From an uncultured Gammaproteobacteria bacterium (GTDB lineage: Bacteria > Patescibacteriota > Patescibacteriia > Magasanikbacterales > UBA922), in assembly GCA_964522435.1 (NCBI GenBank), contig CAZFUL010000003.1, positions 1-55,541 on the forward strand: a stretch of 55,541 nucleotides of DNA, read 5' to 3'. The first letter of the stretch is position 1; the number at the start of each line of letters is the position of its first letter. The notes beneath the pieces were generated by a model that did no database searches, had not been told where the DNA came from, and was given only the letters and a program-made list of their open reading frames with translations. The position numbers and the translations under genes were made by a program. Shown piece by piece: positions 23,338 to 27,458 of this stretch.

Positions 23338-23514
23338 ATGCCAAAAAGAACCTACCAACCGAAAAAAAGAAAACGTCAAAAATCACATGGCTTTCGTTCT
23401 CGTATGGCAACGAAAAATGGCCGCAGCGTGTTAAAACGACGTCGCGATAAAGGTCGCCATGACCTTACTGTCAGTGATGAAAAGAAAGGGAAACGCCTTC
23501 GCAAAACCAGATAA
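23338..23514 (+). CDS. rpmH: 50S ribosomal protein L34 (58 aa, C-terminal extension)
   Basis: [36 protein letters not shown]; divergent from dnaA. Confidence 0.95.
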
Positions 23515-23525
23515 TTGTTTCTTAC

Positions 23526-23560
23526 ACACCTCGCCAGAAATGGCGGGGTGTTCTTTTTTA
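23526..23560 (+). terminator. terminator after rpmH
   Basis: ACACCTCGCCA-GAAA-TGGCGGGGTGT then TCTTTTTT. Confidence 0.8.
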
Positions 23561-23599
23561 TAGTAAACTAGGGCTACCGGGCTTACCCAGACTTAAGCT

Positions 23600-23977
23600 A
23601 TGCTTCTCCAAAAGAACCGTTTAAAAAAAACCAGCGACATTGAAATCGTTTTTGAAAACGGTCGTTTTGTAGGTGGAGCGCTTACCACGCTTAAGGTGTG
23701 GCATATTATTCCAGAAAAATTTCCCAAACGAGGTTATACAAAAGACGACCTTAAAATTGCCTTTGTCGTCAGTAAAAAAATACATAAAAGTGCTGTTCAA
23801 CGGAACCGGCTCAAACGGCAAATGCGTGAGGTTGTTCGTTTATTACTTAAAGAAAACAAGCTCAGAGCAGGAAATATGCTGTTAGTGATGGCTAAGGCGG
23901 AAATGATTGGGAAAACATATCAAGAGATTGAAACAGATTTATTGGCTGTATTACGCCGAACCAGACTTTTAAGTTAA
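23600..23977 (+). CDS. rnpA: ribonuclease P protein component
   Basis: NRLKK..D...VF..G, IAFVVSKKIHKSAVQRNRLKRQMRE (RNR motif). Confidence 0.93.
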   Translation: MLLQKNRLKKTSDIEIVFENGRFVGGALTTLKVWHIIPEKFPKRGYTKDDLKIAFVVSKKIHKSAVQRNRLKRQMREVVRLLLKENKLRAGNMLLVMAKAEMIGKTYQEIETDLLAVLRRTRLLS

Positions 23978-23986
23978 CATAATAAT

Positions 23987-24020
23987 CCCTCCTTTTTAAG
24001 GAGGGGCTTGGGGTGGTTAT
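23987..24020 (+). repeat. REP-like palindromic repeat, copy 1
   Basis: CCCTCCTTTTTAAGGAGGGGCTTGGGGTGGTTAT; 32/34 identical to the reverse complement of 25806-25839. Confidence 0.8.
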
Positions 24021-24024
24021 TTTT

Positions 24025-24288
24025 ATGCGACTATCTACCCTATTTATCCGTCTCCCCCGCTACCCATTTCTCTGGGCTATCTTACTTTATCAAAAATTAT
24101 TATCCCCGGACCATTCTTTTTGGGCAAAACACTGGTACCCACAAGGCTATTGTCCCTATTCCCCGAGTTGTAGCAGCTACGGCTACGAGGTAATTAAGAA
24201 ATATGGGGTGATAAAAGGGATGGCAAAGGCTGGCTGGCGTATTGTACGCTGTAACCCGTGGGGTAAGGGTGGGGTGGATTTGCCGTAA
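24025..24288 (+). CDS. yidD: membrane protein insertion efficiency factor YidD
   Basis: YQKLLSP, CPYSPSCSSYGYEVI.KYG.IKG, RIVRCNPWGKGGVD. Confidence 0.92.
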   Translation: MRLSTLFIRLPRYPFLWAILLYQKLLSPDHSFWAKHWYPQGYCPYSPSCSSYGYEVIKKYGVIKGMAKAGWRIVRCNPWGKGGVDLP

Positions 24289-24339
24289 ATGGCTTTTTAT
24301 AGAAAACCGCTAACATAAGCGAAAAACCACAAAAACAGT

Positions 24340-24366
24340 AAAAATGGCTCAATACAGCCATTTTTT
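24340..24366 (+). terminator. terminator after yidD
   Basis: AAAAATGGCT-CAATAC-AGCCATTTTTT. Confidence 0.72.
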
Positions 24367-24432
24367 GTTATTTTATAAAAATAATTTGGCTAATATAAGC
24401 CAAGTTCTATATTTATCACTCTCGATGTACTA

Positions 24433-24461
24433 TTGACAAAACTGCTTTTTTGTGGTATTAT
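24433..24461 (+). promoter_or_regulatory. sigma70 promoter upstream of GC-rich orphan
   Basis: TTGACA, 17 nt, TGg-TATTAT (extended -10). Confidence 0.78.
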
Positions 24462-24612
24462 GTCTCGTTCTATCCTGAAAGCCGATCCTGGCTGATGGGT
24501 AGAGCGCCCAAGCTCTTTTCGCCAATATACCGTTGTGGTTGAGGCGAACCAATCGATAACGGGTCTGCGGACCCATGCTGCGGCAGCCTATGCTGACCGC
24601 CGGAGATGCCCC

Positions 24613-24996
24613 ATGCGCGCCCTCATCCTCGTAGTTCTGTCCTACGTTCTGGTTCCCGCCTGGATCGCCGCCGCCCAGGCTCAGCCTGTGGTTTCCAAAG
24701 AGTGTCGGCCCCGCCTCGTTCAGGGGGTGCTGCTCACCCCCGTCGGGTGTGAGCTCGCCCTGAAGAACAAGCACGACAACGCCACGGAGCAGAAGCGGCT
24801 GGCGGACGTCCGCAAGGACAAGGCGGCGGCCAAGCTGGCGGAGGCCCAGCAGGACCTGAAGGATACTGCCGAAGCCGCTCGCGCGGCTGAGATGCAGGTG
24901 ACGGAGCGTCCCAAGCTCCGCACCACCCTCCCCAGCCTGCCCGTGCCCGGCACACGTGGCCCCGCCGTTGATCTCGGCGGCAAAGTGGAGTTCTAA
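24613..24996 (+). CDS. GC-rich orphan secreted coiled-coil protein (127 aa)
   Basis: GGAG before ATG, signal peptide MRALILVVLSYVLVPAWIAAAQA, CRP..C pair, Ala/Lys/Glu-rich helix; strong GC3 bias. Confidence 0.72.
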   Translation: MRALILVVLSYVLVPAWIAAAQAQPVVSKECRPRLVQGVLLTPVGCELALKNKHDNATEQKRLADVRKDKAAAKLAEAQQDLKDTAEAARAAEMQVTERPKLRTTLPSLPVPGTRGPAVDLGGKVEF

Positions 24997-25176
24997 CGAA
25001 CTCCGACTCGGAATAGCTTGACCGAGTATAAACAACATCAGCTCTGCGCTCTGTGCGTGTGTACCACATATCCCCGGTACCCAATCAGAGAAGCAGAAGG
25101 CGAAGCTCACCCCTTCGCCTCCCCAACTATCATCATCTGCTTTGCAGGTGGTCATGAAAGGGAAAAAATACACAAG

Positions 25177-25211
25177 AAAAAAAGCCAACGACGAACACTC
25201 GTTGGTTTTTT
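25177..25211 (+). terminator. terminator closing the GC-rich orphan unit
   Basis: AAAAAAGCCAACGA-CGAACAC-TCGTTGGTTTTTT with a G-U pair on the + strand. Confidence 0.8.
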
Positions 25212-25320
25212 ATTTATTAATAAACTCAGTTACCTAAGACAACCGAGTCCCCCCTCTTTACAAAACCACCAGAACTATGCTTAACTAATAGACTTTGTTC
25301 TTTACTGAAGGAGAAGAGAG

Positions 25321-25710
25321 ATGTTGCGCATCATGATCGTGCTGATTTTTTTGACCGCCTGCGGCGGCACGCATGGCCATCAGTTCATCTACGAACTGCA
25401 TAGCCCCTATTTGCGGGGTAGTGTACACGTGATCAACCGGGAACTCGGTTGGGAGCTGTTGTACAACAATTTCGCGGGGGAAGCTGCGTTGGTAGACGGC
25501 GAACGCGGCCGCGATGCCGCTGGCAATGAAGCTGTTTTTTTTCGTATCCCATCAGATGGGTATCGGGAAGAGTTGGTGCTCATTGTCTTACCGACGCAAG
25601 GCGTCGGTTATGAGCGCAAGCGCCGCAACAGCGAGTTTACCGGACCATATTTTGAGCTGGTGCTCAAAAGCTCGGTGCCACTGTCGGCCCGCAAAAAAAC
25701 GTCTCACTAA
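25321..25710 (+). CDS. orphan putative lipoprotein (129 aa)
   Basis: AAGGAG SD, lipobox MLRIMIVLIFLTA-C. Confidence 0.65.
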   Translation: MLRIMIVLIFLTACGGTHGHQFIYELHSPYLRGSVHVINRELGWELLYNNFAGEAALVDGERGRDAAGNEAVFFRIPSDGYREELVLIVLPTQGVGYERKRRNSEFTGPYFELVLKSSVPLSARKKTSH

Positions 25711-25805
25711 CTTGCGCGAAAATTATGGAGGTACTTTTTCGCGCTCCTGAATATATATATCTTTGTTTTCAAAGGTATCTGTGGAAGGAAAAATGATACG
25801 GGTTG

Positions 25806-25839
25806 ATAACCTCCCCCAGCCCCTCCTTAAAAAGGAGGG
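25806..25839 (-). repeat. REP-like palindromic repeat, copy 2 (inverted relative to copy 1)
   Basis: Minus strand CCCTCCTTTTTAAGGAGGGGCTGGGGGAGGTTAT. Confidence 0.8.
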
Positions 25840-25849
25840 GGGCAATTTC

Positions 25850-26080
25850 TTATTCTATTATCTCTACGATTTTTTTTCTCCCCTTCTCTCCTTTCAGAAT
25901 TGTGATACACGACTTCGCAACATCAAATTGTTTGCTCAGTAATTCAATAAGCTTTTTATTTGCTTCGCCGTCCACGGGTGCTGCCGTGAGTTTTACTTTA
26001 TAAGCACCTGCTTGGTCTAAAGGAATAATTTCGTTTTTGGAAGAACGAGGTATTACCGTAATCGTTAAAATTTTTTTCAT
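25850..26080 (-). CDS. DUF167 / YggU family protein
   Basis: [41 protein letters not shown]. Confidence 0.9.
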
Positions 26081-26106
26081 ATATTTTTACTATACGATAG
26101 GGTCTA

Positions 26107-26135
26107 TAAAAAACCCCGAATTAATCGGGGTTTTT
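26107..26135. terminator. terminator after tig
   Basis: AAAAAAACCCCGA-ATTAA-TCGGGGTTTTT. Confidence 0.85.
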
Positions 26136-26144
26136 ATACGAACG

Positions 26145-27458
26145 TTATTTTTTTTCTTCTGCTTTTGGCGTTGCTTTTTCAGGAGCAAGAATTTGTTCTT
26201 TTAACCAAGACATTACTTTTTTATTTTGCAACATGACGGCAATAGATTCACGCACTTCAGGACGTTTTAACCGTTCTTGTGTTTGTTCATCTTTGTACAT
26301 GGCTTTGATCAACTCAATTTCTTTATTAATTTCATCATCATGTGCGTGGAGGTGTTGTTCTTTCGCAATTTCTCGAGAGATGAGCGCTGCTTTGGCACGT
26401 TTGGTTGCTTGATCCGTAAAGTCGTTAAAGAGCTCGTCTTCTTTTTTCTTTATATCTTTAAGGTACTGTTCTACGGTAATACCAGAGCGCTCTAAATTAC
26501 TTTTTAATTCGTAAAATATTTTTTGACGTTCTGCATTAATCAATACTTCAGGTAAATCACCAAAGGTGGTTTTTTCAATTAAGGCATCGAGCATGTCAAT
26601 TTCTACTTGTTGATCTGCTTTTTGTTCTGCCTCTGCTTCTAAGTTTGATTGAATGAGTGCTTGTAATTCGGCGGCACTTTTTTGTCCAACCTTTTGTGCA
26701 AAGTCATCAGTAAATTCAGGGAGTGTTCGTTCAAACACGTCTTTGACCAACACCGTAAAGTCAACAGTTTTTCCTGCTAAATGTTTTTGATAATGGGTTT
26801 TAGGAAACTCTAATGAAAATTGTTTTTCTTCTCCTTTTTCTAACCCTTCCATGTGTTTGTTAAATCCAGGAATGTAGTGATCTTCACTCAAGTACACTTG
26901 ATAATCTTTTGCTTGACCACCTTCCACAGGAACTTTGTCAATAAACATGTCCATATTGATAACGAGTTTATCTGTGCCTGTTGCCTTACCTTCCTTTACC
27001 GCTTCTGTTGCATGCATCCCACGAATGGCATCAATGGTTTCTGTAAGCGTTGCAGCATCAATCGTTTTTTTATTTTTTTTCACGGAAATTTTTTTCAAAT
27101 CAGGCAGTTTGATCTCTGGCAGTAAGGCAACGGTTGCAGAAAAAACAATATCATTGCCAGGCGCTAATTTTTCTAAATGAATTTCTGGCATACCAACCAC
27201 ATCCATCTTTTCTTTTTGGATGCTTTCAACATAGGCTTTTTGCACAATTGATTCCAATGCTTCTTGCAAAATCATCATGTCGCCCAATTCTTTTTTTACA
27301 ATATCAAACGGAGCTTTTCCTTTTCTAAAGCCTTTAATCGCGGTGCGTGCAGATAAGCGATCTGCCGCGATTTTAAGATCCGCGTCATATTCCGCGGGAG
27401 TAACAGTAACAACGAGTTTTATTTGAGATTGTTTCAGTGTTTCTTTAGTATATGACAT
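26145..27458 (-). CDS. tig: trigger factor
   Basis: IKGFRKGKAP ribosome-binding motif, FKBP domain (YIPGF...L.G...GEEKQF.L.FP..Y). Confidence 0.96.
   Translation of the reverse strand: MSYTKETLKQSQIKLVVTVTPAEYDADLKIAADRLSARTAIKGFRKGKAPFDIVKKELGDMMILQEALESIVQKAYVESIQKEKMDVVGMPEIHLEKLAPGNDIVFSATVALLPEIKLPDLKKISVKKNKKTIDAATLTETIDAIRGMHATEAVKEGKATGTDKLVINMDMFIDKVPVEGGQAKDYQVYLSEDHYIPGFNKHMEGLEKGEEKQFSLEFPKTHYQKHLAGKTVDFTVLVKDVFERTLPEFTDDFAQKVGQKSAAELQALIQSNLEAEAEQKADQQVEIDMLDALIEKTTFGDLPEVLINAERQKIFYELKSNLERSGITVEQYLKDIKKKEDELFNDFTDQATKRAKAALISREIAKEQHLHAHDDEINKEIELIKAMYKDEQTQERLKRPEVRESIAVMLQNKKVMSWLKEQILAPEKATPKAEEKK

Follow-up and report, generated by a model that had tools for sequence, protein, structure and literature searches.

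Between yidD and a DUF167/YggU gene, an uncultured bacterium of the Magasanikbacteria carries a short cassette rich in guanine plus cytosine (GC), at positions 24433-25211 of the stretch of DNA analyzed here (the window, 55,541 nt). We think it probable that this cassette is a genuine accessory gene, specific to the lineage, whose product P0001 is a small protein exported by the Sec route, and that the gene was gained by insertion and belongs to a recurrent class of GC-rich genes. The window comes from a metagenome-assembled draft genome of 1.00 Mb (11 contigs, GC 40.9%, completeness 97.3%, contamination 0.25%); genomes across its family and order relatives all measure 0.7-1.4 Mb.

GC content within the cassette reached 62.5% (24470-25135), compared with 29-40% in its immediate flanks, 40.7% in the window and about 41% in the genome. 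The rise coincided with the transcription unit, beginning about 10 nt past the predicted transcription start, which we placed at 24469 from the -10 box, and stopping before the terminator. An initial annotation, made by a model from the letters of this DNA, had drawn the same contrast from 40 of 60 GC positions at 24841-24900 and 20 of 60 at 361-420, in pilB, and both counts were exact. The unit that it described was also there part by part: a near-consensus promoter, a leader of about 145 nt with the hairpins AGAGC/GCTCT, TTCGCC/GGCGAA, GGGTC/GACCC and GCTGC/GCAGC, a 127-aa secreted open reading frame (ORF), a trailer of about 180 nt and a terminator (Table 1). All seven of its hairpin arm pairs were exact, among them GAGTTC-TAAC-GAACTC on the stop codon and ACTCGG/CCGAGT. 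The terminator can act bidirectionally, since A and T tracts lie on both sides of it. We propose that transcription starts at a strong promoter of the type usual in this genome and covers the cassette only, and that translation begins from a normal Shine-Dalgarno site. The same promoter form also serves other genes of the genome, GC-rich and normal-GC alike, and 34 promoters of this type were found genome-wide, several of them nearly identical in the spacer. A recurrent strong form, TTGACAAAA-N5-7-TTTTTT(A/G)TGNTAT(A/T)(A/C)T, stands at genes of both kinds, with examples at C3:24433, C1:122135, C3:96425 (minus strand), C5:31912, C6:5884 (minus strand) and C6:19778 (minus strand).

Table 1. Features of the cassette and of its insertion site, in window coordinates
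Feature	Position	Strand	Description
Window	1-55,541 (contig C3)		First part of contig C3 of an 11-contig draft genome
yidD	24013-24288	+	PF01809, 2.2e-21; conserved left anchor of the insertion site
yidD terminator	24340-24365		
Promoter	24433-24461	+	Sigma-70 type, TTGACA-17 nt-TGgTATTAT, extended -10, 11 of 12 matches
Predicted 5' untranslated region	24469-24612	+	About 144 nt, 59% GC, four short hairpins, non-coding
Shine-Dalgarno site	24602-24606	+	GGAGA, six bases ahead of ATG
P0001 ORF	24613-24996	+	127 codons; codon-phase GC 0.76/0.45/0.83
Stop-codon hairpin	24987-25004	+	7 bp, GGAGTTC-TAAC-GAACTCC, TAA stop in loop
3' untranslated region	24997-25178	+	About 180 nt, non-coding, 53% GC as far as 25135; four well-defined hairpins in a chain, then terminator
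Intrinsic terminator	25179-25211	+	13-bp stem, A and T tracts flanking
Second orphan gene (lipo129)	25321-25710	+	129-aa lipoprotein, lipobox L-T-A-C, 53% GC, own Shine-Dalgarno site
DUF167/YggU gene	25850-26080	-	TIGR00251, E 6.6e-24; conserved right-hand neighbor of yidD, marks right insertion edge

The codon periodicity of P0001 was confined to the ORF, with flat GC across the three phases in the leader (0.64/0.58/0.54) and in the trailer (0.51/0.54/0.54). From this pattern we conclude that the ORF carries high-GC coding periodicity and that the untranslated regions (UTRs) are non-coding yet GC-elevated; no periodicity that would betray remnant coding was seen in either of them. At fourfold-degenerate sites P0001 used A in 2%, C in 53%, G in 29% and T in 16% of cases, against a background of 30%, 21%, 19% and 30% in 391 long ordinary ORFs; the values pooled over 13 GC-rich cassette genes were 9%, 42%, 31% and 17%. 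The ESM Atlas contains exactly the same 127-aa sequence, so another pipeline had called the same ORF.

Judged by eye and by rule (n-, h- and c-regions, with small residues at -3 and -1 in the form A-x-A), residues 1-23 of P0001 make up a predicted Sec signal peptide of the signal peptidase I type: M-R, a 19-residue hydrophobic stretch, and A-Q-A followed by Q. Because there is no lipobox cysteine, P0001 is not a lipoprotein. Beyond the signal peptide, the predicted parts are a Cys31...Cys46 segment, a long helix spanning about residues 43-92 and a disordered tail rich in proline. A single-sequence AlphaFold2 model (predicted local distance difference test score 66) gave the signal helix, the helix at 43-92 and disorder in the tail. 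The mature protein may thus combine a possible disulfide segment with a single helix some 50 residues long and the proline-rich tail, and it would most likely reside in the cell envelope or at the host-cell interface.

The position of the cassette between yidD and DUF167 marks it as an insertion. We found yidD in 60 of 61 family genomes and examined its surroundings in 40 relatives, in 33 of which DUF167 or tig lay downstream. The gap between yidD and DUF167 was at most 200 bp in 28 of these 33 syntenic relatives, often below 60 bp, versus 1,561 bp in this genome. Within these 1,561 bp lie a spacer rich in AT, the cassette itself, the gene of a second orphan lipoprotein (lipo129) and a palindrome like the repetitive extragenic palindromes (REPs). 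Five relatives carried different inserts at the same junction. In one of them, G044, the insert was an unrelated GC-rich gene (up to 64-70%) for a 343-aa cysteine-rich lipoprotein, preceded by a TTGACA...TATAAT promoter of its own and by about 135 nt of leader. Given that the junction is empty in 28 of 33 relatives and holds other inserts in five, we conclude that it was ancestrally empty and has been filled independently; the cassette and lipo129 would have been gained by insertion there in this Magasanikbacteria lineage.

Some further features of this locus were seen across the family. At the G044 locus (L007, about 2810-2850 of the reverse complement), the promoter of the inserted gene for a lipoprotein has its -35 box within the hairpin that follows yidD (AACACCCTTGACAAAAGGGTGTT), and terminator and promoter overlap. 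Over the loci of all 40 relatives (L003-L022 and L033-L052), the family pattern is yidD followed by DUF167 and tig, not by yidC. DUF167 lies on the yidD strand in 5 relatives and on the opposite strand in the others, and 7 relatives have neither DUF167 nor tig within 5-6 kb of yidD.

P0001 is an orphan. No homologue was detected in 40 relatives or in a word-indexed database of 5.8 billion proteins, phmmer returned no hits over 1.84 billion representatives, there was no match in Pfam or NCBIfam, and scans of metagenome and genome contigs and of phages and plasmids were blank. Against the ESM Atlas, the best feature score was 0.76, under the level that shuffled proteins reach. We set aside two faint likenesses: a match to phrog_33389 in PHROGs (E 9e-4, function not known there), which is marginal and includes the signal peptide, and a likeness to another cassette protein, C4_76375, which is a compositional coiled-coil match only (E 0.003 in a tiny database). 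The DNA of the cassette matched the 106 family genomes only at the A/T tract of the terminator, and no syntenic orthologue was found; orthologues with host-like GC would have spoken against a foreign origin.

The initial annotation had further suggested that the unit might be mobilized through its RNA structures, and this idea found no footing. Neither leader nor trailer has a second copy in the genome or in the 106 family genomes, and the cassette has no flanking duplications or terminal repeats. We found no integron attachment site: between 24960 and 25330 there is no GTTRRRY and no usable inverse core, the cassette brings a promoter of its own, and the genome's single tyrosine recombinase lies on another contig (C5), in line with the earlier remark that no integrase or transposase is nearby. 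Nor does the unit resemble a miniature inverted-repeat transposable element or a REP-type element, being single-copy, without cassette-specific flanking repeats, and with no Y1 transposase or REP-associated tyrosine transposase (RAYT) in the genome. In the absence of any homologue, donor, repeat copy, integrase, attC site or RAYT, mobility via RNA structure is without support. The accompanying proposal of a horizontally acquired single-gene unit fared better in part: the unit is self-contained, absent from relatives and placed within the 1,561-bp insertion, but no donor emerged and the cassette is not unique, being one of a class. Like a genomic islet, it has atypical composition and codon usage and occupies a conserved junction that is empty in relatives; integrase, transposase, tRNA target, direct repeats, an identifiable donor lineage and homologues elsewhere were all sought and not found.

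The two UTRs differ in how far their folding departs from chance. For the leader (144 nt), the folding energy was -52.1 kcal/mol (z = -1.99; 5 of 200 shuffles did equally well), and the last 130 nt gave z = -0.8; its hairpins are real complementarity that is not clearly more stable than composition predicts. The trailer with the stop hairpin and terminator gave z = -6.77, and without them (24997-25175) it still gave z = -3.58, with none of 200 shuffles as good and with the minimum-free-energy fold equal to the centroid. Its reverse complement reached only z = -0.89, and we conclude from this difference that the 3' UTR is a strand-specific, well-defined chain of hairpins. Stable stem-loops ahead of the terminator, in the sense strand only, are an architecture of the kind that stabilizes mRNA. 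An Rfam scan of 23500-26500 at E values up to 1 gave nothing in the leader, ORF or trailer, and no known cis-regulatory RNA matched within 24433-25170; the only matches, all sub-threshold, overlapped the terminator.

The cassette has counterparts throughout the genome. We found 49 stretches of at least 58% GC, which amount to 31 islands after neighbors are merged, and these islands are not copies of each other. At least 8 of them have the cassette layout, which opens with a TTGACA promoter and a GC-rich leader of 85-170 nt. The ORF, for a lipoprotein or a secreted protein, follows a Shine-Dalgarno site of the AGGAGA type and is itself followed by GC-rich hairpins and then by a terminator rich in AT. 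The leaders and trailers of 11 cassettes shared no motifs other than promoter, Shine-Dalgarno and terminator words. In a strict set of lipobox ORFs, filtered for both lipobox and Shine-Dalgarno site, 8 of 9 had at least 55% GC (GC at third codon positions, GC3, 0.60-0.83), versus 8.5% of ORFs of 200 or more codons. Examples in this genome (G000) lie at C4:17460-18089, C4:76375-76818, C4:102629-103201, C8:1886-2635 and C5:10689-10988. The trailers of nine cassettes, taken as the first 130 nt past the stop, had a median z of about -4.7, versus -0.9 in 45 ordinary genes. We describe the class as one of mutually unrelated orphan lipoprotein or secreted genes that are GC-rich and favor C-ending codons. 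Each begins with a promoter of native type and a long leader, and ends with a trailer of hairpins and a terminator rich in AT. In the leader of one GC-rich lipoprotein gene (C8:42844-42953, gene at C8:42954), we noted a 13-bp hairpin with a U-tract, resembling an attenuator, and a second hairpin just before the Shine-Dalgarno site.

The same enrichment was seen in two further genomes, of sister genera, with GC-rich lipobox ORFs in 2 of 2 cases both in G066 (351 kb sampled, 35% GC; GC3 0.78-0.79) and in G044 (238 kb sampled, 41% GC), whereas in G063 (closed genome, 800 kb sampled, 32% GC) just 1 of 7 was GC-rich, a control that rules out family-wide generality. The pattern recurs across genera and is not universal. 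The GC-rich lipoproteins of these three genomes are unrelated to those of the genome studied here, save for short repeat matches (26-130 residues) from the G063 one, three of which fall on GC-rich islands of G000.

We compared contigs of public sequencing runs over 23900-25800. In two runs of one wastewater study, X1 and X2, separately built contigs covered 23900-24533 and 24943-25394 at 100% identity, each crossing one of the two GC boundaries; X1 may be the source sample, and no contig of the runs covered 24534-24639 or 24791-24864. A related strain was found in X3, a run of a different study, with yidD 96.7% identical. Its contig has the 3' part of the cassette joined to the same downstream flank and is 99% identical over 24865-25074 and 25146-25296. 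Upstream of 24865 the match ends, and the 30 adjacent nt are about 63% identical with the frame kept, so that this segment of the helix reads L-A-E-A-K-E-T-L-R-E in X3 and L-A-E-A-Q-Q-D-L-K-D here; this retained frame speaks for coding. As a hint from one contig at depth 4, this suggests that alleles of P0001 may be mosaic or hypervariable, with a diverged helix beside a conserved tail and trailer. The second orphan, lipo129, is about 88% identical in the X3 strain; the differences fall mostly at third codon positions and include two pairs of compensating 1-nt indels, and for these reasons it looks like a gene under purifying selection.

Several points weigh against an accessory gene of this kind. 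P0001 has no homologue in the databases searched that could lend it support from purifying selection, or lend its UTRs support from covariation. Transcription, UTR ends and export are all predictions from sequence, and the trailer hairpins could be leftover donor terminators. The leader, as noted, is marginal and not significantly structured, the strain comparison depends on single low-depth contigs, and the class does not extend to G063.

The best-surviving alternative is a one-off, recent transfer, in which a fragment of about 660 bp comprising the 5' UTR, gene and 3' UTR came from a bacterium of about 65% GC and has not been ameliorated, its hairpins being donor terminators or a means of mobility. 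Compositionally atypical accessory genes and islets are ascribed to horizontal transfer in the amelioration framework of Lawrence and Ochman. Transfer, HGT islands included, is also reported to be common in Patescibacteria (PMC12455944). The contrast in GC (62.5% versus 41%), the raised GC of both UTRs, as expected of donor intergenic DNA, and the order C3 > G3 >> T3 >> A3 typical of high-GC bacteria all agree with such an event, as do the site that is empty in 28 of 33 relatives and the absence of the gene from 106 family genomes. Most lipoprotein genes of G063 have host-like GC, which shows that GC-richness is not an intrinsic need of such genes. However, an unameliorated young import should still resemble its source, and no donor or homologue appeared in any of the protein, metagenome, genome, phage or plasmid searches. 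Other members of the class that we tested are orphans too: lipo129 and C8_1886 found only themselves in the 5.8-billion-protein database, and C8_1886 and C4_17460 had no relative in the 106 family genomes. The promoter, the Shine-Dalgarno site and the terminator all follow the host's type, and mobility genes, target duplications and repeats are absent. The same account would have to cover nearly every lipoprotein gene of the genome, and the restriction to exported proteins does not fit it. We regard a one-off import as possible but unlikely.

Alternatively, P0001 may be a native, very fast-evolving gene for an exported protein whose GC-richness, UTRs included, was made or kept within the lineage; candidate causes are recombination-linked GC-biased repair at a hypervariable surface locus, or selection for A-poor, structured messages. 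The enrichment does match the transcription unit from about 10 nt past the predicted start to just before the terminator, it is tied to lipoproteins or secreted proteins in 3 of the 4 genera sampled, no donor is in sight for any member tested, and the mosaic strain pattern (99% in the 3' part against about 63% in the adjacent 30 nt of the helix, with yidD at 96.7%) would fit. Yet no bacterial process is known that would lift the GC3 of single genes from some 40% to some 80%, G063 lacks the pattern, and the strain evidence is one contig at depth 4. The unit is moreover an insertion at a junction empty in relatives and so was not there ancestrally. We consider this account quite unlikely. A wider conjecture, which we hold to be doubtful, is that Patescibacteria of this family have a dedicated and undescribed way to make or keep genes for exported proteins GC-rich, A-poor and structure-rich, by a local GC drive linked to recombination or repair at hypervariable surface loci or by selection on the message, with the cassette as a young product of it and not an import.

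It is very improbable that the island is not a protein gene at all, being instead a structured non-coding RNA or, on the minus strand, a real gene in the 252-codon ORF that spans the whole island (24430-25188). The strongly structured trailer and the lack of a protein homologue lend this idea what appeal it has. The three-base periodicity, however, is strong in the plus frame only (24613-24993), the Shine-Dalgarno site and ATG are followed by a textbook signal peptide, the central part of the ORF shows no unusual structure (z = -0.46), and there is no Rfam match. The antisense ORF shows the phase GC of a shadow frame (0.65/0.48/0.64), has no Pfam match and runs on until it meets the first stops of the AT-rich flanks, as chance alone would have it in GC-rich DNA. 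A chimeric assembly, or high-GC contaminant DNA joined into the contig, is scarcely credible: the GC change is abrupt and the draft is metagenome-assembled and in 11 contigs, but the separately built contigs of two runs bridge both boundaries, from which we conclude that the cassette is not a chimera, the X3 strain repeats the downstream join, the boundaries coincide with a promoter and terminator of host type, and completeness is high and contamination low.

An accessory gene gained by insertion, the reading we prefer, can be set beside several known systems. The E. coli lpp mRNA is highly structured. Lactobacillus slpA combines a strong promoter with a 5' UTR stem-loop and a long half-life (PMC10221546), and the cry and cyt transcripts of Bacillus thuringiensis have a stabilizing Shine-Dalgarno sequence (STAB-SD) at the 5' end and a stem-loop at the 3' end (PMC8309801). 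Like these messages, the cassette would be monocistronic and encode an exported protein, with a near-consensus promoter, a long 5' UTR and, at the 3' end, stable hairpins ahead of the terminator. By analogy, its 3' hairpin chain and terminator would most likely protect the 3' end and insulate the unit. Unlike slpA and cry-cyt, to which it has no sequence relation, its 5' UTR is not significantly structured, its GC-richness has no counterpart there, and stabilization here is putative.

The cassette resembles islets attributed to horizontal transfer in its unusual GC and codon usage, in being an orphan with an exported product, and in that relatives lack it at a conserved junction. It differs from them in having no donor, mobility gene, tRNA target or direct repeats, in the precision with which a native promoter and terminator fit the GC-rich part, and in the repetition of the pattern for nearly all lipoprotein genes of the genome. 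Integron cassettes likewise pair a single small ORF with an imperfect palindromic region and vary in content at a fixed site, but the present cassette has its own promoter and terminator, and there are no attC core or inverse-core sites, no intI and no array.

Taken alone, the cassette is an ordinary-looking orphan accessory gene, and its significance lies in the pattern. The bacterium is ultra-small and probably depends on a host, and the codons of almost all its predicted lipoproteins and small secreted proteins run opposite to those of the rest of the genome. These proteins have native expression signals and no relative anywhere in our searches, and they are the likeliest mediators of host-cell contact. 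If they were imported repeatedly, they would point to an unsampled gene pool, or possibly to hosts; if their GC-richness was made in place, they would point to a new mode of gene-specific control of composition. In both cases, the cassettes supply uncultured Magasanikbacteria with a list of candidate surface factors that is short and open to testing.

The genes around the cassette run in the order dnaN and dnaA (minus strand), rnpA, yidD, the cassette and lipo129 (plus), DUF167/YggU and tig (minus), and an M23/LysM peptidase gene (plus). At 26081-26154, we saw a sub-threshold Rfam match (38 bits; gathering score 47) to the rimP leader of gammaproteobacteria, which is essentially the terminator hairpin between tig and DUF167 and is probably spurious. 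Two inverted REP-like copies of about 34 nt (23985-24020 and 25806-25842) bracket yidD and both orphan genes. The core of this element is CCCTCCTT(A/T)5AAGGAGGG plus a G/C-rich arm, and in this genome, which is without a RAYT gene, at least four further copies lie on contigs C5 and C8.

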